From Candidatus Diapherotrites archaeon CG10_big_fil_rev_8_21_14_0_10_31_34 (GTDB lineage: Archaea > Iainarchaeota > Iainarchaeia > Iainarchaeales > 1-14-0-10-31-34): a DNA stretch of 25,344 bases. The translations under genes and the position numbers were made by a program. The notes beneath the pieces are model-generated. The model saw only the letters and a program-made list of their open reading frames with translations. It was not told where the DNA came from and ran no database searches. Positions 3,767-22,184 of the stretch are shown here, in pieces. The stretch's first letter is position 1. Every line of letters begins with the position of its first letter. The stretch lies in NCBI GenBank assembly GCA_002763225.1, contig PFAI01000021.1, positions 6,296-31,639 of the forward strand, read 5' to 3'.

Positions 3767-5418
3767 AGAAATTTTTTGTTTTCTGGTTTGTTTTGATAAT
3801 TTTCTTTTCTAGCGGGTGCACTCAACAAAACCAATGCACTGTAGACAATGACTGTAAAATAGATGATAGTCCTTGCGTCAATTATTTATGCGAATCAGGA
3901 AAATGTTTTTCTACAGCAGTTAACAACGGAGCTAATTGTGGAGAAGGAAAAGAATGTTTTATGGGGGAATGCGTCAAAAAAGAATGTGATGCCCTTGAAT
4001 GTGACCAGAAAGATAAGTTTGATTGCAATGGAACAACAAAGGAAACATACAATTATTCCTGTATAACTGAAGAGTGTAATTATGAATTAGAAATAGATGA
4101 AAATAGTTTTGATTGTGGTTATATTATTCCTTGCATTGAAGAGGACTGTAATTCAAATAATGCTGAAAAGTGTGAAGGAACCACAAAAATAACTGAAACC
4201 TTTTACTGTGACCAAAAAGAAGGATGCACTAAAAAAACTAAAGAAGACACAAATAGCACAGATTGTGGATATAAAGCACCTAACGAACCACGAGAACTTG
4301 GCGAATCAATAATACAAGATAATGAAAAAGTAACTATTTTTTCAGCTACAAAAAAAGACAGTTATAACTGGGTAGGAATTTCGGGCAAAAGTTATACAAA
4401 TTTTGCTGAAAATGGAAAAACATTCTTATTTTTAGATATAGAAATAGAAAATGTTGGAAACTCTTCTTTCTTTGCCTGCCCAAGATTCGATTCAACTATA
4501 AAAGATACGCAAGGGAACAGCTACGACACAAGCACTTATTTAGATACGGGATCATTTGATTGCACAACACTAACTCCAAACACTAAAAAAAGAGGGCTTA
4601 TACTTTTTGAAATTCAAAAGTCAGCGACAGAACTAACTGCAGTTTATGAATTTAGTATCTACAACGACACATTCGGGTATTGGACAATAAGCAAAACAAA
4701 AAGCGAAAACAACCCCCAAATAAACTGTAACTCAGATGAAATAATTAAAGACGGAAAATGCGTGGATTGCGGAAGCGAAGGGCAATCATGTTGTGCAGAT
4801 GGATGTGATTATGGAAAAGAATGTTTTAATGGAATCTGCAAAAGCTGCGGGGGCAACGGAGAACCAGCTTGCCCATCAGATGGATGTGACTACGGTTATG
4901 AGATAATCGGTGGTGCTTGCGTTAAAAAATGTGGAAGTTATGAAATAAGACAAAATGGTGTTTGCATAGAATGTGGCGGGGCTAACCAAATTCCGTGTAC
5001 AAGCGGTTGTGATTACGGGCATGAACTTTTAAATGGAGTTTGCGTTAAAAAATGCGGGTCGTATGAAATAAGACAAAATGGAATTTGCGTTTCTTGCGGT
5101 GGTGCAAATCAAATACCTTGTAGTAATGGTTGTAGATTTGGATATGAGTTATTTGGTGGAATGTGCATTGAGTCCTGTGGGCTGTTTGAAATCAGACAAA
5201 ATGGAAGCTGTGTAGAATGTGGAGATTGGGATCAACCTTGTTGTGAAGATAATAGCTGCTCTTTTGCATATGGAGCAAGCTGTGTAAATGGCGTGTGTCA
5301 AGATAAAGGCTGTGGTGAATTCGGTGAATCTTGTTGCGAGGGGAACACTTGTAATAGCAGCGACTTATATTGTTATGAAGCAGAATACTCAGATAATTTT
5401 TGTTTATTTAAGTCTTAA
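3763..5418 (+). CDS. Cys-rich repeat lipoprotein with a central DUF4352-like domain
   Basis: Lipobox SSGC; Cys-rich N and C regions around GKTFLFLDIEIENVG...KKRGLILFEI; ATGA overlap with the upstream gene. Confidence 0.85.
   Translation: MKKFFVFWFVLIIFFSSGCTQQNQCTVDNDCKIDDSPCVNYLCESGKCFSTAVNNGANCGEGKECFMGECVKKECDALECDQKDKFDCNGTTKETYNYSCITEECNYELEIDENSFDCGYIIPCIEEDCNSNNAEKCEGTTKITETFYCDQKEGCTKKTKEDTNSTDCGYKAPNEPRELGESIIQDNEKVTIFSATKKDSYNWVGISGKSYTNFAENGKTFLFLDIEIENVGNSSFFACPRFDSTIKDTQGNSYDTSTYLDTGSFDCTTLTPNTKKRGLILFEIQKSATELTAVYEFSIYNDTFGYWTISKTKSENNPQINCNSDEIIKDGKCVDCGSEGQSCCADGCDYGKECFNGICKSCGGNGEPACPSDGCDYGYEIIGGACVKKCGSYEIRQNGVCIECGGANQIPCTSGCDYGHELLNGVCVKKCGSYEIRQNGICVSCGGANQIPCSNGCRFGYELFGGMCIESCGLFEIRQNGSCVECGDWDQPCCEDNSCSFAYGASCVNGVCQDKGCGEFGESCCEGNTCNSSDLYCYEAEYSDNFCLFKS
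4930..5244 (+). repeat. Intragenic 123-bp (41-aa) tandem repeat, about 2.5 copies
   Basis: CG(S/L)(Y/F)EIRQNG units start at 4930, 5053 and 5176. Confidence 0.85.
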
Positions 5419-8989: not shown

Positions 8990-10318
8990 TTATGCTTTTA
9001 GTCCTGCTTTCTGAATTATTTTGATCGCTTGTGGTTTACTCATTTTTTGGAATTCTTCCATTAGCTTTAGCAGGGCTTCTTGGTTTTGCCTGTCTTTTTC
9101 TCTTTCTTGTTCAATTTTGACTAATTTTTCTTTGAGTTCTTTTAATTCAGTTTGCTGGACTTTAGAGACAATTCTTTCATCTAATCTGTTGCCGCATACG
9201 CAGACACTGGAAAAAGGGCTGTTTAGTTCACCGCATTTCTTGCAGGTGTCAGGCAGTTTAGGCTTTAATTCGTCTTTATTGAAAAAGCCGTCCATTGAAT
9301 CAATGTATTTGGCAGTAGTTTTTTGGGCAATATGAGTGTAACGCTGAAGCATTCTTCCGCCAATTCTTTGCCCGACATGTTTTTGGATTACTGCATCAGG
9401 CCAGCTTAACCTCTTCAATAAAGTAATGCCTAAATGCCTTAACTGCCTTGGAGTAACCTTTTCAACATTAATATTAAGCCTTCTTGCAGTGTTTTTTAAT
9501 TGCTTAACAAAAGCTTCTCTTGTCATCTGCCTTAAACCATAATAGCAGTCATTCAATACAATAAAAGGAGAATCCAAAAAAATTTTATCAAATTTCAAGG
9601 GATGGCCTTGACAACCAATTCCATTCAAGTAACTCCAAACATATTTTGTTGCCCAAGTATGCCTTTGAATTCTTTTGCCTGTCTTGCCTTTAATTACAAC
9701 ATTCATTTTAACTGGCCTGGAAGTTAAATCCCCTAACCTTACTTCTTCATCGTTTTCCTTCAAAAACTTAAAAGAACTGACAGTTAAATTGTATTCCCCT
9801 GAACGCAGGCAGCCCTGAATGCCCATTAAAAACAAGGCAAACCATTCAATTGATTTTTTTCTCCATTCCTCTAACAATAAAATGAATTCTTCATCTGAAA
9901 GAATTTCATCTTCATCTAATTCATTAATTGTTTCTTTAATGCAAGGAAACTCTAAATCAAAGCCCTGAAGTTCAGAAGAATTAAACTGCTTTAAAACGAG
10001 TTTTCCAACCAAACGATACATTCTCTTAGAAGAATTAGAAATATCTTTTTTTTCCAGCAAAACTTTCCTTAAATCTGCTTTAGTGAATTCACTGAAAGGC
10101 TTTTGAATGATTTTAGCTATTTGAAGGCCTTTATCCAAATAAATTAATTCCCTCACTAAACCAAAGTTTTTGCCGGAAATAGATTGCTCTTCTTTATGCT
10201 TTTCAATTAATTTTTCAGAATCAGCTAAAAAATTGCTTCCAAGCTTTGAAAAAGCTTGTTTCATTCTCTTGATTTTTTTTCCAACTTTAAAATAGTCTTC
10301 AGAATACTTTAAGGACAT
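8990..10318 (-). CDS. int: Tyrosine recombinase/integrase with C-terminal Zn ribbon and coiled coil
   Basis: GCLRSGE, KGKTGKR, TPRQLRH, MLQRYTH, CKKCG...CVCG; start moved to MSLKYS because AGGAGG RBS and TTTAAATA lie upstream. Confidence 0.9.
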   Translation of the reverse strand: MSLKYSEDYFKVGKKIKRMKQAFSKLGSNFLADSEKLIEKHKEEQSISGKNFGLVRELIYLDKGLQIAKIIQKPFSEFTKADLRKVLLEKKDISNSSKRMYRLVGKLVLKQFNSSELQGFDLEFPCIKETINELDEDEILSDEEFILLLEEWRKKSIEWFALFLMGIQGCLRSGEYNLTVSSFKFLKENDEEVRLGDLTSRPVKMNVVIKGKTGKRIQRHTWATKYVWSYLNGIGCQGHPLKFDKIFLDSPFIVLNDCYYGLRQMTREAFVKQLKNTARRLNINVEKVTPRQLRHLGITLLKRLSWPDAVIQKHVGQRIGGRMLQRYTHIAQKTTAKYIDSMDGFFNKDELKPKLPDTCKKCGELNSPFSSVCVCGNRLDERIVSKVQQTELKELKEKLVKIEQEREKDRQNQEALLKLMEEFQKMSKPQAIKIIQKAGLKA

Positions 10319-10380
10319 AAGTAAGTTCCTCCTATTGAAATATTTAAATTCTAAGGAGGGAACCTTACCTTTTTCCTTCA

Positions 10381-10567
10381 CGCCTTGGCCGGGATTTGAA
10401 CCCGAGTCACAGCCTCTCCGCTTTTTTCCAAAATTTATGTTTTTGTTCAACCTTTTTTTGAAAAAGGTTGTTTTGATACAACTTTTTTCTAAAAAGTTGT
10501 TTTTGCTAAAACTTTTGGAAAATTTTTTTTTGACAGGGCTGGATCCTAACCACTAGACCACCAAGGC
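10381..10567 (-). tRNA. tRNA-Asp(GUC) with a 115-nt intron at 37/38 (intron 10416-10530)
   Basis: Acceptor GCCTTGG/CCAAGGC, G73; anticodon stem CAGCC/GGCTG; loop CT-GTC-A; T-loop TTCAAAT; central helix CUGU/GCGG plus a 3-nt 3' bulge. Confidence 0.95.
10441..10530. repeat. Three tandem 30-bp TTTTGNT-palindrome units inside the tRNA-Asp intron
   Basis: TTTTGTT, TTTTGAT, TTTTGCT at 10441, 10471, 10501, each followed by a palindrome (third imperfect). Confidence 0.85.
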
Positions 10568-10631
10568 AGAATAAGTTATTCTAAAATAAAAGTCCAGAAA
10601 AAAGTTTAAAAAAGAATAAGAAGCAAGGCTT

Positions 10632-10862
10632 TTAAAGCCCTAAAGCTTCATCTATTCTTGCTTTATCAAAACCAATGATTATTTTGCCGTTAATATCCAA
10701 AACAGGAACTCCCTGCTGGCCTGATTTTTCAATCATTTCATGGCCTTTTTCATGGTCCTGAGAAACATCAACATCTTCAAATTCAATTCCTTTTTCTTTT
10801 AAGTAATTTTTAGCCATATGGCAGTAAGGACAGGTTTGCGTTGAATAAACTATTACACTCAT
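10632..10862 (-). CDS. Glutaredoxin-like protein (NrdH/YruB family)
   Basis: CPYC active site, SGQQGVPV, IGFD; GAGGTGA RBS. Confidence 0.92.
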   Translation of the reverse strand: MSVIVYSTQTCPYCHMAKNYLKEKGIEFEDVDVSQDHEKGHEMIEKSGQQGVPVLDINGKIIIGFDKARIDEALGL

Positions 10863-10887
10863 TTTTTCACCTCAAATTTTTAAATGC

Positions 10888-11139
10888 TTAAAGTTTTTTT
10901 GCAGTATTCAAAAGCAGTTTTATTTTACTGCTGTTTAACACAATGCACTGAATGTTTTTGCCTTTTTTCTGCATTGATATCAATTTTGCGTCCCGTAATT
11001 CTTTTAAATGCCTTGAAACAGTTGAAGGATCCAGCTTAAGTTTCTTTGAAAGAGTTTTATTGCATGCTTTGCTGTCTTTTAAAAGAATTTCAAGGATTTT
11101 AATTTTTGAATCACAGGAAAGGGCTTTAAACACTTGCAT
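10888..11139 (-). CDS. ArsR/SmtB family regulator
   Basis: FKALS...KILEIL...STVSRHLKELRDAKLI; start placed at ATG 11139. Confidence 0.88.
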   Translation of the reverse strand: MQVFKALSCDSKIKILEILLKDSKACNKTLSKKLKLDPSTVSRHLKELRDAKLISMQKKGKNIQCIVLNSSKIKLLLNTAKKL

Positions 11140-11141
11140 AA

Positions 11142-11157
11142 TTGTACAATTGTACAA
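11142..11157. promoter_or_regulatory. Perfect 16-bp palindrome TTGTACAATTGTACAA, candidate ArsR operator
   Basis: Lies between a minus-strand TTTAAAAA box (about 11163-11170) and the ArsR ATG. Confidence 0.65.
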
Positions 11158-11175
11158 AACTATTTTTAAATCTTT

Positions 11176-11916
11176 TTATTCAAGCAAAAGCAACATTACT
11201 GCTATTCCTGCAATAAAACTTATCAGTAATAAAATTGATTTTTTCAAGTCATATTCTTTGTGTAATTCTGGAATCAAATCGCTTCCTGCAATATAAATGA
11301 AGTTTCCTGCTGCAAAAGGAAGTAAGAAAATCAGTAAATTTTCCATCATGGCTGAAGCTAATACAACTATTCCTGCTCCAATTACTGCGGTTAAAGCTGA
11401 AACAAAATTCATTAATAATGCTTTTTTTCTTGTAAATCCGCTGTAAATTAACACTCCGAAATCTCCTATTTCTTGTGGTATTTCGTGGAATATTACTGCC
11501 ATTGTTGTAGCTATCCCTAATGTAGTGTCTGCTAAATATGCTCCTGCAATAATCATTCCGTCAATTAAATTGTGTACTCCGTCCCCGATTAAATTCATGT
11601 AACCAAAACTTTTCAGTTCACATTTTCCTGCAGGAAAACCATGGCAGTGATGCCAGTGAATTGTTTTTTCAATTAAAAAAAACACAACTATTCCTGCTAA
11701 TAATGCAAGTGAAATGTCTATTCCAAAACCATTTTCTTTTACTGCTTCAGGCAGTAAATGCAAAAAAGCTCCTCCAAAAAGAGAGCCGGCAGAAAAGCTG
11801 ACTAAATACAATATTATTTTGCTTAAAAATTCTCTGTTTAATCCAATAGTTAAAACTCCAACTAAAGACATTAAGCTTACTAGTATTACGCTTCCAAAAA
11901 TATAAATTAGTTCCAT
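11176..11916 (-). CDS. ZIP family metal transporter
   Basis: AFLHLLPE, HWHHCH loop, GDGVHNLIDG, HEIPQEIGDFGVL. Confidence 0.95.
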   Translation of the reverse strand: MELIYIFGSVILVSLMSLVGVLTIGLNREFLSKIILYLVSFSAGSLFGGAFLHLLPEAVKENGFGIDISLALLAGIVVFFLIEKTIHWHHCHGFPAGKCELKSFGYMNLIGDGVHNLIDGMIIAGAYLADTTLGIATTMAVIFHEIPQEIGDFGVLIYSGFTRKKALLMNFVSALTAVIGAGIVVLASAMMENLLIFLLPFAAGNFIYIAGSDLIPELHKEYDLKKSILLLISFIAGIAVMLLLLE

Positions 11917-11941
11917 TACTTATTAGTGAATGAAATTTAAT

Positions 11942-12733
11942 TTAATTGTTTGTTTTGTTGTTGTAATTATAATAAACAATTAATTCTCCGTTTTTGTTTC
12001 TTAAAAATAACTGGTCTTTGTCATTATTCCATGTATTTCCGTTTCCCCAATAAAACTCATTTCCTCGTTCTATTCCTTTTGCAGAGAAAACTCTTACAAA
12101 ACTTTTTTCTTTTAATTGAATTGCAGGAAAAAAATACAAGTTTGTTGCTTCATCTTTTAGATAAAACCCGTTTAAATCAATTGAATAATTACAATTATTA
12201 GAGAATTCAACGAATTCCCCCATAAACGTGTCTTGATTGAATTCAAATCCTGAAAGGGAAATGCATTTATCCAAAAAATATTTTTGTTGGGATTCTTTCC
12301 ATAAACAGCCTTTTTTTTCTTTCATTGCTTTTTTTTGCAGTTCATCAAATTCATTTATTTCTTCGTAAGAATAATAGTGTCCTAATCCTTGTTCAAGTAT
12401 TTTTTTGTTAATGCTTTTTCCTTGAACACAGACATTTCCTAAAAGCCTTCCATAAATGTCTGTTTCATTTCCCTGAACCAAAACTTTTTTTCCTAAAACC
12501 TGTTTTTCCAGAAATTCTTTTGCTTCTTGAAAACAGCCTTCTTTTTTTTCAGGAGTATTTATTCCTGCAAGCCTGATTTTAGTGTTTTCTGATTCAATTG
12601 TGTCTCCGTCAATTACTCTTGTTACAATAAAAGTTTTTCCTTGAGTGCAGTCAAATTCAGTTCTTTCTTGAATACATGCAAATAAAAAAATTAAAAGAAA
12701 TAAAAAGAAGTAAAGAGAAAATAATTGTTTTAT
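11942..12733 (-). CDS. Thermonuclease (SNase) plus lamin-tail-domain lipoprotein; no canonical in-frame start
   Basis: Frame stays open 84 codons upstream of the track ORF: IKQLFSLYFFLFLLIFLFAC...RVIDGDT...IRLAGINTPE...DIYGRLL; LTD motifs EFVEFSN, IDLNGFYLKD, WNNDKD. Confidence 0.8.
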   Translation of the reverse strand: MKQLFSLYFFLFLLIFLFACIQERTEFDCTQGKTFIVTRVIDGDTIESENTKIRLAGINTPEKKEGCFQEAKEFLEKQVLGKKVLVQGNETDIYGRLLGNVCVQGKSINKKILEQGLGHYYSYEEINEFDELQKKAMKEKKGCLWKESQQKYFLDKCISLSGFEFNQDTFMGEFVEFSNNCNYSIDLNGFYLKDEATNLYFFPAIQLKEKSFVRVFSAKGIERGNEFYWGNGNTWNNDKDQLFLRNKNGELIVYYNYNNKTNN

Positions 12734-12747
12734 TCATTTTCCCCTTT

Positions 12748-12945
12748 TTATTTTTTTGGCATTGAACAACAGCAGATTCCCATTGCAACCATTATTCCTG
12801 TTATTACTGCAATTATTGGCCAGATTACTGTTAAATAAGGCAGAGTCCAGACATTAAAGTATGCTAGAAAACCCAGTACCCCAACAATAATTAGTGCTCC
12901 TCCTTTGCAATAACATTTATTTGAACAATTGCATTTTCCTTCCAT
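12748..12945 (-). CDS. Small two-TM protein with Cys-rich ends (LiaF/DUF5668-like)
   Basis: GALIIVG...IWPIIAVITG; AGGAG RBS. Confidence 0.7.
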   Translation of the reverse strand: MEGKCNCSNKCYCKGGALIIVGVLGFLAYFNVWTLPYLTVIWPIIAVITGIMVAMGICCCSMPKK

Positions 12946-13004
12946 TAAATCTCCTAATAAAATACTTAATCAGGCTTAATAAATATTTGTTTTATTCTTT
13001 TTTT

Positions 13005-13307
13005 ATGGATTCTTTTCAACAGGTTCTTTTTTGGCTGATTGCTGGTTCTAAAGGCGGAACTAACAGGGCCAGAATTCTTTTTGCTTTGGAAAAAGAGCCA
13101 ATGAACTCTAATGTTTTAAGCAAAAAAGTTAAATTAGATTACAAGACTACCCAGCATCACATTAACCTGCTTTTAGAAAACCATTTAATTGTCAGGACAG
13201 GAGACAAATACGGACAGATTTTTTTTATTTCCCCTCAATTAAAGGATAACTGGAGTTTGTTTAAAAAACTGTTTGAAAAGAAAGTTTTAAAGGAGGAATC
13301 AAAGTGA
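13005..13307 (+). CDS. Archaeal ArsR-like wHTH regulator
   Basis: FWLIAGSKGGTNRARIL...PMNSN...LDYKTTQHH...GDKYG; start placed at ATG 13005. Confidence 0.88.
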   Translation: MDSFQQVLFWLIAGSKGGTNRARILFALEKEPMNSNVLSKKVKLDYKTTQHHINLLLENHLIVRTGDKYGQIFFISPQLKDNWSLFKKLFEKKVLKEESK

Positions 13308-13717
13308 AACTAAATAAATCAAATTTGATTTTAACTGCAGGAGTTTTAATTGCAACTTTTGTGTTTATTTATGTATTGTCTTTTTTGTCTTATTATTTTA
13401 TGCCTCAAAGGCCAATGGGAATGAGAGCTTTTTTTGAAGACTTTATTTTAATTAAAACAGTTATTTTTTCAGTTAATACTGTTTTGCTGGTTTACCTGAT
13501 TTACAATTATGTTTCTCTTTACAATGAAGTTAAATCCCAGTTTTCTTTGGGGTTAATTACCATGAGCCTGGCTTTATTTTCTTTTGCAGTTACTGACAAC
13601 CCTTTATTTCCTTTATTGTTTGGCTTAAGAGGAGCAGGAATGGGTGCACTAACAATAATTCCTTCACTATTCACTTTAGTTGCAGTATTAGTTTTAATTT
13701 ATTTAAGCAGAAAATAA
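13304..13717 (+). CDS. Four-TM membrane protein coupled to the wHTH gene
   Basis: GTGA overlap, GGAGG RBS, hydrophobic segments with KSQFSLGL. Confidence 0.8.
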   Translation: MKLNKSNLILTAGVLIATFVFIYVLSFLSYYFMPQRPMGMRAFFEDFILIKTVIFSVNTVLLVYLIYNYVSLYNEVKSQFSLGLITMSLALFSFAVTDNPLFPLLFGLRGAGMGALTIIPSLFTLVAVLVLIYLSRK

Positions 13718-13767
13718 ACCCTTTTCAAAGGGTTTAACCAAATGTACGGCATAAAGCCGTACTGCAA
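13715..13767. repeat. Free-standing double-hairpin copy of the tRNA-intron repeat
   Basis: TAAACCCTTT-TC-AAAGGGTTTA, spacer, GTACGGC-ATAAA-GCCGTAC-TGCAA; aligns with 21792-21845 on the minus strand. Confidence 0.8.
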
Positions 13768-13820
13768 GAGTTTTCTTTACAAATCAAAAAAGTTATAAAT
13801 AACAAAGCACTAATTAATGC

Positions 13821-14142
13821 GTGGACTTAAATTATTTTTTGAGCAAAAAAGGATTAACCTAAATTGGTTTAGGGGTTTTAGGGGTAATTGTTTTTTTTTC
13901 TGCTCCCACTGTTTTTCAAGTAAGTGATTCTTTTTTACTTCCAGCATTTTTTTTAATTATTTTATTTCTTTTTCTTTGTTTTTGAATGGTTAAATAGATC
14001 AATCTCTAAAGAAAACATCAGCCTAATAGAAAGACTAACATATGGAGTAACTTTTACATTACTTTTATTATTTTTTGTTGCAATATTCTCTTTTATATTA
14101 GGTGATGCTATTGGAAATTTTATCACTTTGTTTTTTGGATGA
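13821..14142 (+). pseudogene. Disrupted small membrane protein gene
   Basis: TTATAAAT about 25 nt upstream of GTG 13821; in-frame TAA 13860-13862; frameshift between about 13957 and 13982; hydrophobic frame ends at TGA 14140-14142. Confidence 0.5.
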
Positions 14143-14193
14143 TAGTTTCAGTTGGCTTAGTGCGTTTAATAGGCATTCATAAAATTCTAAAAT

Positions 14194-14232
14194 AAAAAAA
14201 AGAGGGGAGAAAGAAGGGCAAAGCCTTCTTTC
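14194..14232 (-). terminator. Hairpin plus oligo-T, candidate terminator
   Basis: GAAAGAAGG/CCTTCTTTC stem 14209-14232, followed on the minus strand by a T run, downstream of 14259-14837. Confidence 0.4.
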
Positions 14233-14258
14233 AGTTAAAGGGATTGTTTAATCCTTTA

Positions 14259-14837
14259 TTAGGTTGTTGTGTCAGAGAAAGGGCAGTCTCCAAAATTTCC
14301 TTTCATTCCGATGCCTTTTCCTTTAAAACCGTTTGCTCCGTTTATTTCTTTGAATCCGCTTTTTCCGAAACCGTTTTCTAATCCAAGTTCTTTCATGATT
14401 GTTTTAGCTGTTTCAATGTCTCCTGACTGCATTGCTGAATGCATTTCTGAAAGCAAAGAAAAGTTGTCTTCTGTTATAATTGAAAGCATTTCTGTGTTTC
14501 TTGGGTTATTGTTTTCTTCCATTAAAGTTTTCCAGGTTGCATAGTCCTGATTTTCTATTGCTGTCTGAATTGCTTTCATGTTTTCTGTCATTTTTTCCCT
14601 GTTTTGGTTTCTTTCCTGCATTGTGTTTCTGATTGCATTAAAGTTTTCTTCAGTTAACTGGTTTTCCTGCAGTTGTTTCCATTCCTGAAAGTCATTGTTT
14701 TCTATTGCTGTTTTTATTTCCTGCATTGCATCTGAATTAAACTCTAATCCTGTTCCAAAGTTTCCTTTGAAAGCCATTGCAGTTCCTGCTGCAAGCAATA
14801 CAAACAGGATTCCTATTCCAAGTATTTTGTTGTTCAT
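14259..14837 (-). CDS. Secreted helical protein with an internal duplication
   Basis: Signal peptide ending TAMA; TAIENNDFQEWK and TAIENQDYATWK repeats; Gly-rich tail; GGAGGT RBS. Confidence 0.85.
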   Translation of the reverse strand: MNNKILGIGILFVLLAAGTAMAFKGNFGTGLEFNSDAMQEIKTAIENNDFQEWKQLQENQLTEENFNAIRNTMQERNQNREKMTENMKAIQTAIENQDYATWKTLMEENNNPRNTEMLSIITEDNFSLLSEMHSAMQSGDIETAKTIMKELGLENGFGKSGFKEINGANGFKGKGIGMKGNFGDCPFSDTTT

Positions 14838-15057
14838 TTTTTTTACCTCCTTTTTGTTGTCAATGAAATACTTTGTTTTGCTTATTTAAAAAGGATTTTC
14901 CAGACTTTCACCCAAATTCAGCCATAAACTCTTTTTTAAAAAAAAGCTGCAACTCAAACCAAAAGTTTAAGTGCACAACAAAATCAAACTTTTGTCAGTA
15001 AACAAAAAAAATGCATTTATTTAAATTCTTATTCCAGTTAAATTTTTTAGTGGTTAA

Positions 15058-16278
15058 ATGAAAAGGAAAAGAAGAAAAAGCATTGAAGTTAAAATAGGAA
15101 AAATAATGATTGGAGGAAACAATCCTGTTGCAGTTCAGTCAATGACTAATACTCCGACTGAAGACATAAAAAAAACTGTTCAGCAAATAAAAGATTTAGC
15201 TGACGCAGGAAGCGAGTTAGTCAGGTTTACAGTAAAAGATGATTTAGGAGCAAAAGCTGTTCCTGAAATAAAAAAACAGTTATTGAATGAAGACTATGAT
15301 GTTCCTTTAATCGGAGACTTTCATTACAACGGGCATATTTTGTTAACTAAGTTCCCTAAGTGTGCTGAAGCATTAGATAAATTCAGGATTAATCCCGGCA
15401 ATGTCGGTTTTGGTTTAAGCAGAGACGAAAACTTTGAAAGCATGATTAAAGTTGCAATACAAAACAGCACTCCAATAAGAATTGGGGTTAACTGGGGTTC
15501 ATTAGACCAATCAGTTTTAAAAAAATTAATGGATGAAAATTCAAAGCAAGGCAATCCAAAAACAAATAATCAGGTAATGATTAATTCAATTGTAACCAGT
15601 GCATTGGAAAGCATTAAAAAAGCAAATGAATTGGGTTTAGAAAACAACAAAATTGTTGTTTCAGCTAAAAGTTCCAGAGTGCAGGACATGATTAAAGCAT
15701 ATGAATTACTTGCAGCAAAATGTGATAATGCATTGCATTTAGGTGTAACTGAAGCCGGACCAGGAATTAAAGGAGCAGTTCATACTGCAGCAGGTTTATC
15801 TGTTATTTTACAACAAGGAATCGGAGACACTATTCGTTGTTCTTTGACTCCAACTCCAGGCGTTAAAAGAACAGAAGAAGTTGTTATTGCAAAACAGGTT
15901 TTGCAGAGCCTGAATTTAAGGAGATTTAATCCTGAAGTAACTTCTTGTCCTGGATGCGGAAGAACTACTTCAACTGTTTTTCAGGAAATTGCATTAAATA
16001 TAGATGAATTTTTAAAGAAAAAAACTCCTGAATGGAAAGAAAAAGGATTCAAGGGATTTGAAGAAATGGAAGTGGCAGTAATGGGCTGTATTGTTAACGG
16101 CCCGGGCGAAAGCAAAAATGCAAACATTGGCTTAAGTCTTCCGGGTTCTGGAGAAACTCCTTCTGCGCCGGTTTTTGCTGACGGAAAACAAATCAAATTA
16201 TTAAAAGGAAATGCAAAAACTCTTACAAAAGAATTCATTAAATTAATTGAAGAATATGTTGAAGAGCATTACAAATAA
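15058..16278 (+). CDS. ispG: (E)-4-hydroxy-3-methylbut-2-enyl-diphosphate synthase
   Basis: VQSMTNT, DFHYNG, RINPGN, RIGVNWGSL, HLGVTEAG, GIGDTIR, CPGCGRT, MGCIVNGPGE. Confidence 0.97.
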   Translation: MKRKRRKSIEVKIGKIMIGGNNPVAVQSMTNTPTEDIKKTVQQIKDLADAGSELVRFTVKDDLGAKAVPEIKKQLLNEDYDVPLIGDFHYNGHILLTKFPKCAEALDKFRINPGNVGFGLSRDENFESMIKVAIQNSTPIRIGVNWGSLDQSVLKKLMDENSKQGNPKTNNQVMINSIVTSALESIKKANELGLENNKIVVSAKSSRVQDMIKAYELLAAKCDNALHLGVTEAGPGIKGAVHTAAGLSVILQQGIGDTIRCSLTPTPGVKRTEEVVIAKQVLQSLNLRRFNPEVTSCPGCGRTTSTVFQEIALNIDEFLKKKTPEWKEKGFKGFEEMEVAVMGCIVNGPGESKNANIGLSLPGSGETPSAPVFADGKQIKLLKGNAKTLTKEFIKLIEEYVEEHYK

Positions 16279-16279
16279 A

Positions 16280-17134
16280 TCAAACCGTAAATGTTTCAAT
16301 TACTGTATGATATTTTTGTGTCAGTTTCTGTATTATTTTAGTTGAATCTTCTTTTGTTTTTGGAAAACAAAATACTGTGCTTCCTGAACCGCTCATTAAA
16401 ACTTTAAAAGAATTTTCTTTCATTATTTCTTTGACGTGTTTTATTTCAGGAAAATCTTCTAAAACACTGAACTCAAAATCATTATGCAAAAGTTCAGCCA
16501 GTTCTTCAATTTTTTTTCCTTGTTCTATTGCTTTCCTTAACTTTTTTGAAGCCAAAACTTTCCCTGATTTCTCATAGTTTACTTTTGAGTAAGCTGTTGG
16601 AGTTGAAACACGAATTCCCGGATTGCATACAAGAACTCTTGTTTTAGGAAAAGATTTTATTTCAGTTATTTTTTCTCCTCTTCCAGAAGCAAAACAAGTT
16701 TTACCATACAAAAAGAAGGCTACATCCATCCCGATTTTTTTTGTTGTTTCCTGCAAGTCTTTTTCATGCATTTTTATTTTCCATAATTTGTTTAATCCTT
16801 TGATTACTGCTGCTGCATTACTGCTTCCTCCTCCAAGGCCTCCTGCAACAGGAATTATTTTGTTAATTGATATTTCAATTCCTTTTTCTATTCCATAAAC
16901 TTCTTTTATCAGTTCAGCTGCTTTCCATACAAGATTTTTTTCGTTTAACGGCACTTCAGGAGCATTGCATTTAATTATAATTTTGTTTTCATTTAATTCT
17001 TTCAGGATTATTTCGTCTTTTAGTTCCAGTTCCTGCATTATCATTTCCAGTTCATGATAACCGTCAACTCTTTTTTTGATTATATCTAAAGTTAAATTAA
17101 TTTTTGCCGGAGAATCAATTTTCAGTTCGTTCAT
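16280..17134 (-). CDS. ispE: 4-(cytidine 5'-diphospho)-2-C-methyl-D-erythritol kinase
   Basis: PAKINLTL...DGYHEL, IPVAGGLGGGSSNAA, G.DV.FF, NDFE, MSGSGSTVF. Confidence 0.95.
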   Translation of the reverse strand: MNELKIDSPAKINLTLDIIKKRVDGYHELEMIMQELELKDEIILKELNENKIIIKCNAPEVPLNEKNLVWKAAELIKEVYGIEKGIEISINKIIPVAGGLGGGSSNAAAVIKGLNKLWKIKMHEKDLQETTKKIGMDVAFFLYGKTCFASGRGEKITEIKSFPKTRVLVCNPGIRVSTPTAYSKVNYEKSGKVLASKKLRKAIEQGKKIEELAELLHNDFEFSVLEDFPEIKHVKEIMKENSFKVLMSGSGSTVFCFPKTKEDSTKIIQKLTQKYHTVIETFTV

Positions 17135-17198
17135 TTAAATTCACTAAACTTTTTTTTAATTCATTTTTTTATTGTTTTTTCTTTTTTTGTTTATTTTT

Positions 17199-17831
17199 TC
17201 AATCTATTACTCTTACATCAACTGCAATAACCTCTTTTTCGTTTGCAATTAATGGATTGATATCAATTTCTTTTATTTTTTCTTTCATCATTAAATTATT
17301 TACTTTGATTAAAACATACTCTAGTTCTTTCAAATTAATGCTTTTTTCTCCGCGGATTCCTTTTAGTATTGGATAACCTTTTATTTCTGAAATCATTTCT
17401 TTTGCTTCTTCATGATTAATCGGGCAGATTCTCAGAGAAACATCTTTCATTAATTCAACAAAAATGCCTCCTAAACCAAATAAAATGGTTGGGCCAAACT
17501 GCTGGTCAATTTTTCCTCCAACTATTATTTGTTTTCCTTCAATAAATTGCTGAACAAAAATTCCCTGTATTACTGCTTTAGGTTTTTTCTTTTTCACATT
17601 TTTTATTATTAAGTTATATTTTTGTAAGGCTTCTTTTTCGTTTTGAATATCTAATTGTACTCCGCCGACATCGCTTTTATGTGAAATGTCTTTTGAAATA
17701 ATTTTGAGTGTTATTGGATAACCTAATTTTTTTGCTGTTGAAATTAATTCTTTTTTGTTTTTAACCAGTTTTCCTTTAACAAATTTTATTCCGTATTTTT
17801 CAATCAGTTTTTTTGATTCAATAAAATCCAT
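17199..17831 (-). CDS. acdB: ADP-forming acyl-CoA synthetase beta subunit (ATP-grasp)
   Basis: GYPITLKI.S..ISHKSDVGGV, FGPTILFGLGGIFVE..KDVS, EIDINPL. Confidence 0.9.
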   Translation of the reverse strand: MDFIESKKLIEKYGIKFVKGKLVKNKKELISTAKKLGYPITLKIISKDISHKSDVGGVQLDIQNEKEALQKYNLIIKNVKKKKPKAVIQGIFVQQFIEGKQIIVGGKIDQQFGPTILFGLGGIFVELMKDVSLRICPINHEEAKEMISEIKGYPILKGIRGEKSINLKELEYVLIKVNNLMMKEKIKEIDINPLIANEKEVIAVDVRVID

Positions 17832-17927
17832 ACACTTAATATCAGGCTTAAACTTAATTTAAATTTTGCCTTAATCCAGTCTTATTTTAAATTAAATCCA
17901 CCTTTTTTTATTTAAAAAGGAAAAGAA

Positions 17928-19199
17928 ATGAGTATTATGGTTAAATTAAAGGCTTTGGGCGCAGCAAGAGAAGTTGGAAGAAGCTCTTTTTTGCTTGATG
18001 TAGGAGAAAAAATATTGTTTGACAGAGGAATTAAATTAGGTCATGATGAAACAGAGTATCCAATGCTTGTTAAAACTAATCTTGATGCAATAGTTATTTC
18101 TCATGCTCATTTGGATCATTCAGGCAATCTTCCTGAATTATTCACTAAATCTAATTCTTTTGTTTATATGACAATGCCTACTTTAGATTTAAGCAAAATT
18201 TTATGGTTTGATTCACTTAAAATAGCAAAATTTGAGGGAATTACGCCAGAATTTTCTCCTTTAGAAATAAAGAAAGCAGAAAAATATACTTTTGCTTTGC
18301 CTTACCGAAAAAAAGTTTTTTTAAGTGAAAACACTTCGCTTGAATTATTTGATGCAGGGCATATTCTTGGTTCTTCAATGGTTAAAGTTGAATCAGAAAA
18401 AAAAAGTGTTGTTTATTCCGGAGACTATAAAATGCAGTCCACCAGACTGTTTAACGGATTAGACAAAAGAATTGGCAAGGCAGATGTTTTAATTACTGAA
18501 TCAACTTATGGAGACAGAAATCATTCAGACAGAAAAGAATTAGAGAAAGAGTTTGCAGAAGAAGTGCAGGAAACAATTAACAGAGGAGGACATGCAATGA
18601 TTCCTGCTTTTGCTGTCGGCAGAAGCCAGGAATTAATTGATATTTTGTTTGAACATAAAGTGGATGCAGAAATATTTTTTGATGGAATGGGACAAAAAGT
18701 TGCAAGAACTACTTTAGAGTACCCTGAATTATTAAAAAACCCAAAAAGTTTAGGGAAAGCATTGCATTTAGTTAACTGGGTTTCAAAAGGAAAAAGAAAA
18801 CCTGTTTTAGACAAGCCAAGTATTATTGTTACTTCAGCCGGGATGCTTGAAGGCGGTCCAATAATGTGGTATTTAAAAAAACTTTATCAGGATAAGAATT
18901 CAAAGATTTTTTTGACTGGTTATCAGGTTGAAGGCACTAATGGAAGAAAGCTGTTAGAAAAAGGAATAGTTGATATTGACGGAGAAAGACTTAAAGTTGA
19001 AAACCAGGTTAAAATGTTTGATTTTTCTGCTCATGCATCCCAGGATGAATTAATTGATTTGGCTAAAATAGTTAATCCAGAGTTAGTTGTCTGCGTTCAC
19101 GGAGATGAAAAAGTAATTAATGTTTTCCAGAAAAGGCTGAAAAACGAAGGATTTAATTCTGTTGCGCCAAAATTAGGTCAAGAAATAAAACTTGATTAA
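17928..19199 (+). CDS. MBL-fold beta-CASP ribonuclease (aCPSF-like, no KH domains)
   Basis: EVGRS, SHAHLDHSG, AGHILGS, SGD, ESTYG, PAFAVGRSQE, GYQVEGT, FSAHA, VHG. Confidence 0.93.
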   Translation: MSIMVKLKALGAAREVGRSSFLLDVGEKILFDRGIKLGHDETEYPMLVKTNLDAIVISHAHLDHSGNLPELFTKSNSFVYMTMPTLDLSKILWFDSLKIAKFEGITPEFSPLEIKKAEKYTFALPYRKKVFLSENTSLELFDAGHILGSSMVKVESEKKSVVYSGDYKMQSTRLFNGLDKRIGKADVLITESTYGDRNHSDRKELEKEFAEEVQETINRGGHAMIPAFAVGRSQELIDILFEHKVDAEIFFDGMGQKVARTTLEYPELLKNPKSLGKALHLVNWVSKGKRKPVLDKPSIIVTSAGMLEGGPIMWYLKKLYQDKNSKIFLTGYQVEGTNGRKLLEKGIVDIDGERLKVENQVKMFDFSAHASQDELIDLAKIVNPELVVCVHGDEKVINVFQKRLKNEGFNSVAPKLGQEIKLD

Positions 19200-19200
19200 A

Positions 19201-19986
19201 ATGAGTTCTTTAATTGAAATACTCAGAAACTCTTTTGTTGTATTAAAAAAAGAGCCAAAGCTTTTTGTTCCAAAAATTTTTCTTTCTTTATTATGGGGAG
19301 CCTTTTTATTGTATTACACTTTTTTTTTAAAAGAACTTTTGCAGGAAAACAGTTTGTTTCAGAACACAGTTAGTGCTTCTTTAGCTCAGGGATTTCTTTT
19401 AAAACTGTTTTTTTTGTTTGGGATTTTTTTGATTATTTTTGTCATTGACAGCATAATTAATTCTGCTTATCCTTTAATGATTCAAAATTATCTGAACAAA
19501 AAAAGTTTTTCCATTGTGCTTTCAGTTAAACTTGTTTTAAAAGACTTTTTTAAAGTGATTATCCCAATAATTTTTTCTTTTATTTTAATGATAATTGTTT
19601 TGATTCCTTTTGTTGCAGTTTTTGTTTTATTTGTTTTTCAAAAAAACTTTTTGTTTTCAACTGTTATGGCTGTAATAACTTTTATTGCAACAATAATTCT
19701 TGCAGTAATTTTTTACTTTATTTATCCTGTTGCAGTAATTGAAAAAAAAGGCCTGATTTCAGTTGTTAATACTGTGAAAAAAGCAAGAAAAAATTTAAAA
19801 GAAGCTTTTTTTGGAACATTTATTTTTTCAATTATTAGCTTGATTTCGGCTTTAATTGTTTCTTTTGCTGAAACAGATACAATTAGTGTTATTGCTTTAA
19901 TTGTTTTTGCTTTATTAAGAATTATTACAGCAGTTTTAGCAACTTATTCAATGGTGTTAAATCCTTTGCTGTATTTTAAGAAGTGA
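19201..19986 (+). CDS. Multi-pass membrane protein
   Basis: About six hydrophobic segments; ATG 1 nt after the upstream stop. Confidence 0.8.
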   Translation: MSSLIEILRNSFVVLKKEPKLFVPKIFLSLLWGAFLLYYTFFLKELLQENSLFQNTVSASLAQGFLLKLFFLFGIFLIIFVIDSIINSAYPLMIQNYLNKKSFSIVLSVKLVLKDFFKVIIPIIFSFILMIIVLIPFVAVFVLFVFQKNFLFSTVMAVITFIATIILAVIFYFIYPVAVIEKKGLISVVNTVKKARKNLKEAFFGTFIFSIISLISALIVSFAETDTISVIALIVFALLRIITAVLATYSMVLNPLLYFKK

Positions 19987-19991
19987 ATTAA

Positions 19992-20687
19992 ATGTTTAAG
20001 TTTTGTCCTAAATGTGGAAAAAAAGAAGGCAATTTTATTAAAGGTTTTTGTCAGGACTGCTTTTTGCAGGACAACAAACTATTGATTTATCCGGATAAAA
20101 TTCAGATTGAATGCTGTAAGAGATGTGATAAAATTAAGATTCAAAGGAACTGGATTGAATTGCATTCATTTGAATTAACTGATTTTTTGAAAACAAAAAT
20201 TAAAGCAAAAGAGTTTGAATTACAGGAAATTGAATTTGAATTAGAAGAAGCAGAAAAAAAAAATTTTAATGCTTTAATTGAAGCCAAAGGATTAATTGAA
20301 GGGAATCCTTTAATGCTTACAGGAGTCATAAAATTACAGTTTGTTTCAAGCATCTGTGATTCTTGTATGAAAATTTCTTCTGATTATTTTGAAGCAACTT
20401 TTCAGTTAAGGTTTTTAGATAACAAAACTGACAGGAAAGTTATTCTAAATAAAGTTGAAAACTTGATTCAAGAAATGAGCAAAAAAGACCCTTTATCCAG
20501 AATAGTTAAATTAATTGAATTAAAAAATGGTTTTGATTTGGTTTTGAGTTCAAATCGTTCAGCTAAAATTTCTTCAGAAAAAATAGCAAAACAATTTAAT
20601 TCTAAAATAATAAAATCTTTTTCTGTTGTTGGAGTTGATAAAACAGGAAAAGAAAAAAGAAGATACACTTATTGTGTGAGAATTTAA
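19992..20687 (+). CDS. nmd3: NMD3 family protein
   Basis: FCPKCG, CQDC, CKRC, CDSC...YFEATFQLR. Confidence 0.9.
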   Translation: MFKFCPKCGKKEGNFIKGFCQDCFLQDNKLLIYPDKIQIECCKRCDKIKIQRNWIELHSFELTDFLKTKIKAKEFELQEIEFELEEAEKKNFNALIEAKGLIEGNPLMLTGVIKLQFVSSICDSCMKISSDYFEATFQLRFLDNKTDRKVILNKVENLIQEMSKKDPLSRIVKLIELKNGFDLVLSSNRSAKISSEKIAKQFNSKIIKSFSVVGVDKTGKEKRRYTYCVRI

Positions 20688-20728
20688 TAATCCAAAGAAA
20701 TCCACTGCTTTTAAACAGTGAAAGAACG

Positions 20729-21433
20729 TCATACTTCAAATCCTTTTAATCCTTCAAGTATTTCCTGCATTGGTTTATTTGAAATAATTAAAGGAATTTT
20801 TTCTATTTCAGCTATTTTTATTGCTAAAGGGTCAACTTTTTTTTTTAATCCATGCAATACAATTATTGATGGAGTCATATCAGTTGAAAACCTTCCGATT
20901 TTAACTGCAATCATTGGGCTTCTGCCGTTTTCCACTGACTGAAAAATTAATGCTCTTTCAGGAGTTTTTCCGTATAACTGCATGTATTCATGCACTGGAA
21001 TATCCAGTATTACTTTTAGTGAATCAATTACTGTATACCCATAAATTGTTGTTTCTTTTAGTTTGCTTGGGTTAGCCATAACTTTTCCGTCAATTTTTTT
21101 TAGAAAGTCCTGTCCTTGTACTGCTGCAGAAAATTCATGTACTCCAAAAATTTCTTTTGATGGCTTAAAATCTTTTTCTAATTGTTTTCTTACTTTTCCG
21201 CCTCTTTTTTCATCAATCAAAATCAATGCACTTACAAGTCTTTTTACTATTCCTATTCCAGGACTTTGTCTTCTTCCTCCTTCATAATCAGAAATAGTTG
21301 AACTGCTTACTTTCAAATAGTCAGCTAATTCGGTTTGAGAAACTCCAAAGATTTCTCTCCATTTTTTCATTGCTCCGCCTGGCTCTTTGCTTAAACAAAT
21401 TTCTCCAGCCATAATAGATGAAAGCTTGTCCAT
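20729..21433 (-). CDS. Archaeal XRE-type HTH regulator (COG1709-like)
   Basis: MAGEI..S..PG.AMKKWRE.FGVSQ...ISDYEGGRR.SPG; GYTVIDS; GRSPMIA. Confidence 0.9.
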   Translation of the reverse strand: MDKLSSIMAGEICLSKEPGGAMKKWREIFGVSQTELADYLKVSSSTISDYEGGRRQSPGIGIVKRLVSALILIDEKRGGKVRKQLEKDFKPSKEIFGVHEFSAAVQGQDFLKKIDGKVMANPSKLKETTIYGYTVIDSLKVILDIPVHEYMQLYGKTPERALIFQSVENGRSPMIAVKIGRFSTDMTPSIIVLHGLKKKVDPLAIKIAEIEKIPLIISNKPMQEILEGLKGFEV

Positions 21434-21529
21434 GCATTAACTAAGAAAAAAACACTTAAAAAGCCTTTACGTCAATCGCCATTTAAAAAGGTTTTATTCT
21501 TCGACAAATGTTATTTTGTTTATATTAAT

Positions 21530-21677
21530 GCCTTGTTGAAAACAGGGCGATATATTTCGTTGCCGCCGGGCAAAACAGCGAAACGTTTATTGTAGTGCTA
21601 TCACAGATAGCACGCTCCCTTCCGACAGCTGGGCTGAAAGCCCTGCACCGTTACACCCGCACGGAAGCGGGTAACGG
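21530..21677 (+). ncRNA. Unidentified structured RNA candidate
   Basis: GC-rich island of consecutive stems; three G-U pairs all favour the plus strand. Confidence 0.5.
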
Positions 21678-21882
21678 GCCCACCGGGAGTCGAACCCGGG
21701 TCCACAGCTTACAACTTTTTCCAAAAGTTGTATCAAAAACAGTCCTTCGGACGTGCACAACTTTGTTGTGCTTTAAGCATCATCTGAACCATTGCAGTAC
21801 GACTGAAAGTCGTACGTTTTGTTACACCTTTTGGAAAAGGTGTTTTAGGAGGCTGTCATCCTATCCACTAGACTATAGGCCC
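21675..21882 (-). tRNA. tRNA-Arg(CCU) with a 136-nt insertion at about 37/38 (21710-21845)
   Basis: Acceptor GGGCCTA/TGGGCCC, G73 and A20 Arg identity elements, anticodon stem ACAGC/GCTGT, loop CT-CCT-A, T-loop TTCGACT. Confidence 0.9.
21711..21843. mobile_element. MITE/REPIN-like insert forming the tRNA-Arg intron
   Basis: Imperfect 27-28 bp terminal inverted repeats (21711-21738 and 21817-21843), each itself palindromic; three internal hairpins. Confidence 0.55.
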
Positions 21883-21914
21883 AAACAAATTGTTTAAAGA
21901 TAATTTTAAAGAGT

Positions 21915-22184
21915 TTATTGGCCTTTGAACCATTTTTCGTATTGTTTGTGGTTTCCAACAAAATGAATTTCTTTTTGCAGTTCTTCTTCGTTTTGATAAA
22001 AAGCTATTCTGTATTGCCCAACTTCTTCTACTAAAACTTTTGATTGTTTCAGCCCTCTTGCCATTAAAGGCTGTTTCATTTGACTAAATTTTTTTAAAAT
22101 TCGTTTTTGGATTTCTTTGTCAAATTTTTTAAAGTGCTTGTCCCATTCTTTCTTGAAAACCAGTTTCCAAGGCATTAATTCCAA
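21915..22184 (-). CDS. RelE/ParE-superfamily toxin
   Basis: WKLVF...FKKFDKEIQKRILKK...VGQYRI...VGNH...Y. Confidence 0.8.
   Translation of the reverse strand: MELMPWKLVFKKEWDKHFKKFDKEIQKRILKKFSQMKQPLMARGLKQSKVLVEEVGQYRIAFYQNEEELQKEIHFVGNHKQYEKWFKGQ

Follow-up and report, generated by a model that had tools for sequence, protein, structure and literature searches.

A miniature palindromic hairpin repeat in tRNA introns, at gene ends and inside genes of an Iainarchaeum-like archaeon

Introduction

Palindromic repeats of the REP, REPIN and BIME families are described as 20-40 bp palindromes with an adjacent conserved motif, present in about 100 or more copies per genome, which lie mostly in intergenic DNA near gene 3' ends, fall into subfamilies and form mosaic clusters with linker motifs (PMC2817692, PMC3733652). 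Here we describe a hairpin repeat of comparable layout in an archaeon. It was noticed in a window of 25,344 nucleotides (the whole stretch of DNA analysed; contig PFAI01000021.1, positions 6,296 to 31,639 of the forward strand) from Candidatus Diapherotrites archaeon CG10_big_fil_rev_8_21_14_0_10_31_34, where copies occupy the introns of a tRNA-Asp and a tRNA-Arg gene and one further site between genes. The reading that we favour, and consider reasonably probable, is that of a miniature mobile hairpin repeat, laid out like REP/BIME elements and tolerated in coding sequence like the Rickettsia palindromic elements (RPEs), that colonises tolerant sites, supplies much of the sequence of long tRNA introns and is not driven by a RAYT transposase.

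The archaeal repeat resembles the REP/REPIN/BIME elements in palindrome size, adjacent motif, copy number, position at gene 3' ends, mosaic clusters and subfamilies. It differs in its tag, which is a linker of the form TTT(T/G)GNT as opposed to the GTAG or CGTC of REP, and in its stems, which are AT-rich as opposed to GC-rich; its host is an archaeon, its copies cluster in tRNA genes, including their introns, and in the DNA around them, and no Y1/RAYT gene was found. The preliminary description of the window had proposed a REP-like archaeal element, and the likeness stands for high copy number, a location mostly outside genes and organization into arrays, but not for the cognate Y1/RAYT gene.

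Two other groups of small repeats invite comparison. RPEs are elements of about 150 bp found in frame in unrelated housekeeping genes, to which they add a short peptide, and the archaeal MITEs (miniature transposable elements with inverted repeats) of Sulfolobus, Halobacterium and Haloquadratum are presented as short non-autonomous repeats moved in trans (PMC10969869). Like RPEs, the repeat described here stands in frame in four protein genes and is missing from their orthologues; its units measure 28-36 nt against about 150 bp, and the hosts of RPEs are bacteria. RPEs also occur in RNA genes, as the present modules do in the RNase P RNA gene, and we know of no report of them in tRNA introns. 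Like the MITEs, the hairpin repeat is short and non-autonomous, but no parent insertion sequence, separate terminal inverted repeats or clear target-site duplication was found for it.

Archaeal tRNA introns at position 37/38 are recognised through a bulge-helix-bulge, in which two 3-nt bulges surround a 4-bp helix. Work on Thermoproteales is said to have revealed transposition and gain of tRNA introns. As in Thermoproteales and Asgard archaea, many tRNA genes of the present genome are interrupted, and the content or presence of introns changes fast between relatives; the differences are that its introns lie nearly all at 37/38, are long (27-254 nt) and have an interior built of repeats whose family is also found in coding DNA and elsewhere beyond tRNA genes. 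The route by which archaeal tRNA introns arrive is treated as open in one preprint (bioRxiv 10.64898/2026.10.13.758758). Our literature searches, whose coverage mostly excluded subscription journals, found no account of an element like this one in the tRNA introns of archaea.

Results

Census and anatomy of the repeat

The source genome (G000; C numbers denote contigs, and the window is C16:6296-31639) is a bin of 1.04 Mb with 30.8% G+C that is 81% complete. In an NMD3 comparison its closest named relatives are 'Candidatus Iainarchaeum archaeon' bins, at 63% identity. The comparison set comprises 31 genomes, and the Iainarchaeum-like (DPANN) family has 9, including five congeners of G000; the congener G005 (96% complete) served as full-genome comparison, and G023 is 99% complete and in one contig. 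Genes were delimited by crude open reading frame (ORF) calls made for the present analysis.

A strict scan, requiring foot, outer arm, T-run, loop, A-run and a perfectly complementary arm, finds 104 perfect copies in G000, compared with 10, 7, 9, 2 and 5 in five order-3 Markov shuffles of the genome. The concern that no copies might exist beyond those first noticed is thus removed, the count standing far above the 2-10 of the shuffles. Within the window a strict pattern matches four times versus never in 100 shuffles, and chance origin of the family is excluded. Once copies with an outer arm below 5 bp or with an N are set aside, the 97 perfect units used below remain. Looser criteria carry little signal: perfect hairpins in general are barely raised in G000 (1781 vs ~1550 shuffled), and a loose foot-plus-hairpin scan gives 474 against a background of ~220, so that the strict family pattern alone is informative.

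An IUPAC version of the pattern is present in 9/9 family genomes, with 125 overlapping matches in G000 and 22-145 in the five congeners, and also in some other families of the order, such as those of G013 (29) and G023 (19); the reversed control pattern has no match in any of the 31 genomes. The richest genomes are G003 (most), G000, G008 and G004, and many relatives have zero. G005 carries 41 perfect units of the same subfamilies in other proportions, eight of their exact sequences being common with G000.

Each module consists of a 20-23 bp palindrome and a 7-nt T-rich linker (A-rich on the opposite strand), which together form a unit of 28-30 nt, the A unit. Identical 28-30-mers occur at 3-4 dispersed loci, and subfamilies are common to different species. 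Most of the 97 flanks have another hairpin, either an A unit or a B type, upstream of the foot. The foot TTTTGNT, at first taken for a motif private to the palindrome, is therefore the linker to the next hairpin in mosaic arrays. Members of the B family follow the form GYRCGNN, a 5-nt loop and NNCGYRC, then TGCAA; they give 64 strand-hits (~32 loci) vs 0, 0 and 2 in shuffles, and the top of their stem varies with compensating changes. The GGG subfamily of A units numbers 9 perfect copies in G000; all six that were inspected have their foot directly against a B-type hairpin. A module of the order A-linker-B opens the Arg intron and also follows tRNA-Ile (C44) and tRNA-Ala (C32). A third hairpin type (AAACG..CGTTT) adjoins many tRNA ends. 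On contig C60, a composite block of ~73 nt, made of two other hairpins and an A unit, is near-identical at 4074-4146 and 10714-10786, 6.6 kb apart, which indicates that whole multi-hairpin blocks are also duplicated.

All six copies named in the preliminary description are present in the window where they had been placed, and both host genes are genuine tRNAs by their Rfam matches (Table 1). The 16-mer TTTTGATACAACTTTT recurs exactly in the second Asp copy (+) and the first Arg copy (-); since both host tRNAs lie on the - strand, its two occurrences are opposite relative to transcription. With the exception of the third Asp copy, which is degenerate, the six copies form clear hairpins (z -2.7 to -5.7). 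The three Asp-intron units are tandem with a 30-nt period, and in the minimum-energy fold UUUUCCAAAA of the third can pair with UUUUGGAAAA near the intron 3' end. At the two ends of the Arg intron the units are inverted relative to each other, with a B-type hairpin directly after the 5' unit and its linker. The intergenic copy has the variant foot first reported for it, yet it is not a lone unit: it forms one half of a two-hairpin element (A-linker-B, 13715-13765) whose joint fold reaches -21.6 kcal/mol (z -5.74), and its palindrome overlaps the TAA stop of the ORF at 13304-13717.

Table 1. Features of the window discussed in the text (window coordinates).
Feature	Position	Strand	Details
tRNA-Asp(GTC) gene	10381..10567	-	Rfam tRNA 41.4 bits
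tRNA-Asp 5' exon	10531-10567	-	
tRNA-Asp intron	10416-10530	-	115 nt, after position 37
tRNA-Asp 3' exon	10381-10415	-	
A unit 1, Asp intron	10441..10470	+ (antisense to tRNA)	TTTTGTT + CAACC..GGTTG palindrome; RNA hairpin -9.4 kcal/mol, z -3.72; identical 30-mer at C32:8551 and C55:3632
A unit 2, Asp intron	10471..10500	+ (antisense to tRNA)	TTTTGAT + ACAAC..GTTGT; hairpin z -3.40; identical 30-mer at three further loci, C27:138, C41:2428, C58:13008
A unit 3, Asp intron, degenerate	10501..10530	+	z -0.53; 51/200 shuffles fold equally well
A unit, GGG subfamily, intergenic	13715..13742	-	TTTGGTT + AAACCC..GGGTTT
B-type hairpin + TGCAA	13744..13762	+	GTACGGC ATAAA GCCGTAC
tRNA-Arg(CCT) gene	21675..21882	-	Rfam tRNA 41.8 bits
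tRNA-Arg(CCT) 5' exon	21846-21882	-	
tRNA-Arg(CCT) intron	21710-21845	-	136 nt, after position 37
tRNA-Arg(CCT) 3' exon	21675-21709	-	
A unit, Arg intron 5' end	21817..21843	+ (antisense to tRNA)	TTTTGTT + ACACC..GGTGT; hairpin z -3.75; palindrome 3 nt from exon
B-type hairpin in Arg intron	21797..21815 (C16:28092-28110)	-	GTACGAC TTTCA GTCGTAC
A unit, Arg intron 3' end	21711..21738	- (sense to tRNA)	TTTTGAT + ACAAC..GTTGT; hairpin z -2.68; palindrome 1 nt from 3' exon
486-aa ORF	8990-10380	-	weak phage-integrase match; directly adjoins tRNA-Asp 3' end
GcpE/IspG gene	15058-16278	+	full length, Pfam E 7e-114
PurD-like protein	22528-24903	-	791 aa

Insertion into protein and RNase P RNA genes

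Some G000 units lie inside genuine coding sequence, always antisense, where they read QTF(E/S)K(S)L(N/I)KK. Alignment with G005 resolves four of five coding cases as clean in-frame insertions of 8-14 aa, the fifth falling in a variable helicase region. Specifically, a 12-aa insertion in an AK6/Fap7-like kinase is absent in 7/7 other family genomes, and 8/8 lack the 8 aa inserted in a further P-loop kinase. The inserted DNA corresponds either to one unit with its linker (24-30 nt) or to a unit and linker joined to another small hairpin (36 nt), the two-hairpin stretches being those of the AK6/Fap7-like and C6 genes; both insertions aligned at the DNA level fall within A-runs. Clean insertions in four conserved G000 protein genes confirm the earlier suggestion, made from the orientation of the intron copies, that the element acts at the DNA level.

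A stable RNA gene is affected as well. The RNase P RNA gene (C47:1688-2071) contains, near its 3' end, a 57-nt insertion of three hairpin modules between model positions 257 and 258, and more units lie downstream. The same RNA shows a 75-nt expansion in one stem.

Next to stop codons the comparison points to turnover. Fourteen of 16 stop-adjacent G000 units have a G005 orthologue, where one is conserved, one has rearranged units, three have other hairpins and nine have nothing. Judged from such alignments, the turnover of module content between species is fast.

Units remodel tRNA introns

Long introns at 37/38 interrupt many tRNAs of both G000 and G005. With its default settings ARAGORN finds no tRNA in the window; its intron option recovers the tRNAs but mislabels several, whose anticodon loops identify tRNA-Trp(CCA) at C13:13021-13158, tRNA-Arg(TCT) at C47:13525-13735, tRNA-Gln(TTG) at C31:24604-24722 and tRNA-Gln(CTG) at C64:251-350. 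The loci of eight relatives gave no Rfam tRNA at the gathering threshold, and their exons were placed by fuzzy matching instead. G000 encodes one splicing endonuclease, a 178-aa ORF; in DPANN archaea, alpha4-type enzymes with an extra loop have been linked to more disrupted tRNA genes (PMC5829648).

A geometric scan for the bulge-helix-bulge finds the outer helix and the 4-bp central helix in tRNA-Asp, -Pro, -Leu-TAA, -Cys, -Tyr and others. In tRNA-Asp a 5-bp outer and a 4-bp central helix would place the cut after position 37, with no contiguous intron-internal helix. tRNA-Pro is fully canonical, and two half-palindromes form its 10-bp intron-internal helix. Being self-complementary, the palindromes can thus supply the intron-internal helix beside splice sites, as seen in tRNA-Pro. 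The same scan finds no 4-bp central helix at 37/38 in the introns of tRNA-Arg(CCT) and its paralogue tRNA-Arg(TCT), which are homologous to each other.

Comparison of orthologous loci shows that intron content turns over and is not fixed across relatives. The Asp intron, 112-150 nt long, occupies the same site in 6/6 relatives in which both exons were found, and it is of a different sequence type in four of them; among seven genomes, only G000 (three) and G002 (one or two, joined to the 3' half of the old intron) have A units in it. The Ser(GCT) intron, present in 5/7 genomes and missing from G000 and G002, holds one module in G004, two in G005, two in G003, about four in G001 and other hairpins in G008. 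Module content also differs between G000 and G005 in the Trp, Arg, Pro and Leu-TAA introns. By this comparison the tested introns (Asp, Ser) are ancestral, older than their present content, so that the units remodel and enlarge introns. Of the original proposal that the repeat may create or enlarge tRNA introns, enlargement and remodelling are upheld by the replaced Asp content in G000 and G002 and by the graded Ser(GCT) modules; creation is not shown, the Asp intron being in place in all six relatives.

Intron presence is patchy for Asn(GTT) and Gln, where gain and loss are not polarised without a species tree. Both Gln genes are intronless in G001 and G002, and the Gln(CUG) intron of G000 measures just 27 nt, consisting of one degenerate palindrome, AGAG and 2 nt, which makes it a candidate minimal case for intron creation. 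A bolder interpretation starts here: the modules would be a self-propagating kit on which the cell depends, supplying helices by which the splice sites and processing sites of pre-tRNA are defined, and a module beside the anticodon loop with four loop-complementary nucleotides would suffice for a new spliceable intron. We regard this as doubtful. If true, it would be the first concrete DNA-level route for the origin and growth of archaeal tRNA introns.

Introns in rRNA offer little for comparison: rRNA genes are absent from the G000 bin, and the 23S gene of G005 is free of large insertions (2994 nt vs a 2987-position model).

Placement and orientation of units

According to the crude gene call, 66 of the 97 perfect G000 units lie in the non-coding 11% of the genome. 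Counts by location are given in Table 2. Units in or against tRNA genes make up 18/97 in G000 and 20/41 in G005, a strong association.

Table 2. Location of perfect units in G000 and its congener G005.
Location	G000	G005
Inside tRNA introns	8/97	9/41
Palindrome against tRNA 5' end	4/97	6/41
Palindrome against tRNA 3' end	6/97	4/41
Foot against tRNA end	0/97	1/41
Palindrome against stop codon	16/97	3/41
Foot against stop codon	3/97	2/41 (both overlapping tRNA contexts)
Just upstream of ribosome-binding site and start codon	4/97	not scored
Next element another perfect unit	8/97	not scored
Other locations	51/97	18/41

The side facing the gene is not arbitrary. Over G000 and G005 together, the palindrome faces the tRNA in 20 units and the foot in one; for units beside stop codons in G000 the corresponding counts are 16 and three. 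The rule that the palindrome points toward the gene and the linker away from it is real and applies on both sides of genes. The idea, put forward at the outset, that the element specifically targets tRNA position 37/38 is not supported, the palindrome being placed equally against ribosome-binding sites, stop codons and both the 5' and the 3' ends of tRNAs. Unit orientation follows no pattern relative to GC skew or coding strand in G005 contigs, where sites are few, and a test of G-T versus A-C mismatches for the transcribed strand was drowned in background.

One rival explanation is that the units are transcription signals, either compact promoters with TTTTGNTN at -31 to -24 of tRNA genes or oligo-T terminators and insulators against polymerases arriving from either side. 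The foot starts at -31 in 4/6 tRNAs that have a sense unit against their 5' end, which by eye is the TATA-box position of unit-free tRNA genes, and both upstream and downstream the linker T-run is on the strand read by polymerases approaching the adjacent gene. Termination by archaeal RNA polymerase at oligo-T is established and counts in its favour. A TATA box interrupted by a central G would be atypical, however, units after stops would drive antisense transcription, and units also occupy coding sequences and the introns of tRNAs, in which a promoter or a terminator would do harm; moreover, a positional scan upstream of 208 start codons reveals no TATA or foot peak. We consider transcription signals very unlikely as the basis of the family.

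Hairpins at tRNA ends

For 28 orthologous G000/G005 tRNA pairs we scored perfect hairpins at the tRNA ends. A hairpin ending 0-4 nt from the 5' end is found in 15/28 (G000) and 11/28 (G005) tRNAs vs 20/168 shifted control windows, and the species agree: it is present in both for 11 pairs, in neither for 13, in G000 only for four and in G005 only for none (Fisher p 6.7e-5). Assigned by eye, hairpin type differs in about 4/11 of the shared 5' cases. Hairpins at the 3' end are likewise frequent, in 17/28 (G000) and 14/28 (G005) vs 23/168 controls, with 11 pairs having one in both species, eight in neither, six in G000 only and three in G005 only; this concordance is not significant (p 0.12).

Such numbers would fit hairpins that are functional RNA punctuation: set directly against the mature ends of tRNAs, tRNA exons, RNase P RNA and coding regions, they would be selected because they hold leader, trailer and intron sequences in folds apart from the functional RNA, and perhaps because they mark or protect the sites cut by the splicing endonuclease, RNase Z and RNase P. 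The change of hairpin type at shared 5' sites agrees with this, as does the outer stem AAAC..GTTT common to different hairpin types beside tRNAs. So does the rRNA operon of G005, where units lie in the spacer after tRNA-Ala and the same hairpins flank tRNA-Ala and the 23S rRNA. Against it, the upstream and downstream versions are reverse complements and hence a different RNA motif, which points instead to a DNA element set in mirror orientation; units are found inside protein-coding sequence; nine of the 14 orthologous protein-gene 3' ends are hairpin-free in G005; the 3' concordance falls short of significance; and the 5' concordance could merely separate tRNAs with their own promoter (-30) from co-transcribed ones. 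Punctuation as the explanation of the family strikes us as unlikely, and it is partly compatible with mobility, in that modules may have been domesticated, with only their sequence drifting or being swapped. For the tRNA 5' ends themselves, the concordance leaves room for a structural role or for the distinction between own-promoter and co-transcribed tRNAs.

Several other arrangements near tRNA genes were observed. The ORF with a weak phage-integrase match abuts the tRNA-Asp gene (Table 1), and upstream of it, to about window position 1, lie helix-turn-helix/terminase-like and DUF4352 genes. An element has probably integrated at tRNA-Asp, which would explain why there is no hairpin array in the tRNA-Asp trailer. 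Elsewhere the last 17-21 nt of a tRNA are recopied downstream (C13:9735, C31:24245, C31:24392, C45:2803 and C47:12342-12386), at a distance of 100-360 nt, or 1.1 kb at C47, with a hairpin array ahead of the copy and a T-run immediately behind it; these recopies resemble direct repeats left by integration, with the hairpin arrays between them. The leaders of the three tRNA-Gln genes (G000 C31:24723-24800 and C64:351-470; G005 C2:274803-274862) have one odd layout, conserved across paralogues and species, that runs from a copy of tRNA nt 1-14 through one or two A units and an inverted copy of the tRNA 5' part to 5 nt and the tRNA.

Search for a mobilising enzyme

REP and REPIN elements have a cognate single-copy Y1 HUH transposase, the RAYT, in the same genome, and the repeat usually lies on either side of its gene. 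A true REP/REPIN system with such an enzyme would fit the conserved motif beside a short palindrome, the high copy number, a location mostly outside genes and inverted pairs such as those at the Arg intron ends. The distribution of the enzyme largely refutes it. Y1_Tnp (PF01797) has no hit in G000, none in G001, G002, G003, G005 and G007, all of which carry the repeat, and none in G023 with its 19 pattern hits; it occurs in 6/31 relatives without relation to copy number, including G019, G024 and G027, which have zero repeats. The hairpins at the ends of the IS200-type copies in G006 are GC-rich and unrelated, and the foot, as a linker, belongs to the hairpin before it as well. The postulated HUH/RAYT driver, or a Y1/HUH gene flanked by the unit, was not found in G000 (81% complete), G003, G005 (96%) or G023 (99%), and movement by a RAYT is highly improbable.

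Searched in the source genome only, TnpB is likewise missing. Reverse transcriptases (PF00078) occur in 7/31 genomes but in none of the repeat-carrying G000, G001, G003, G004 and G005, and a reverse-transcriptase route was rejected.

Neighbouring genes

The full-length GcpE/IspG gene of the window, a gene of the bacterial-type isoprenoid pathway in an archaeon, stands beside a GHMP kinase gene. The PurD-like protein has a LAGLIDADG-like segment between its GARS_A and GARS_C matches that looks like an intein.

Discussion

We favour a miniature mobile hairpin repeat as the explanation of the family. What is inserted into DNA is either one module or a unit accompanied by a small hairpin beside it, and these survive where a small hairpin is tolerated, that is, in tRNA introns, at the ends of tRNA and RNase P RNA, inside RNase P RNA and after stop codons. 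In proteins they survive as short hydrophilic in-frame insertions. The tRNA introns are older than what they now contain, and modules fill, replace and lengthen them. We infer that the repeat spreads without a dedicated HUH transposase, probably by a host recombination or replication route or by an enzyme not yet recognised.

Several observations weigh against mobility. The two DNA-level insertion alignments show neither a clear target-site duplication nor defined ends. No mobilising enzyme was found among Y1, TnpB and reverse transcriptases (DDE transposases were not searched). Contigs of four groundwater runs represent near-identical strains and break at repeats, and over window 10300-22000 they contain no informative insertion or deletion of a unit. 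Simple insertion at random would not lead one to expect the orientation rule, and the 5'-end concordance fits selection for structure as well as, or better than, neutral parasitism. Finally, all the genomes are metagenome bins.

The lineage offers a tractable case in which a repeat family that inserts into DNA also builds much of many long tRNA introns. It is a concrete DNA-level source of intron sequence, and within a single genus the species differ in how long their introns are and in what these contain. The finding extends miniature palindromic repeats of the REP and RPE kind to DPANN archaea, without a HUH transposase, which points to an unknown way of moving repeats. The hairpins that bracket stable RNAs may possibly be part of RNA processing in these reduced genomes.

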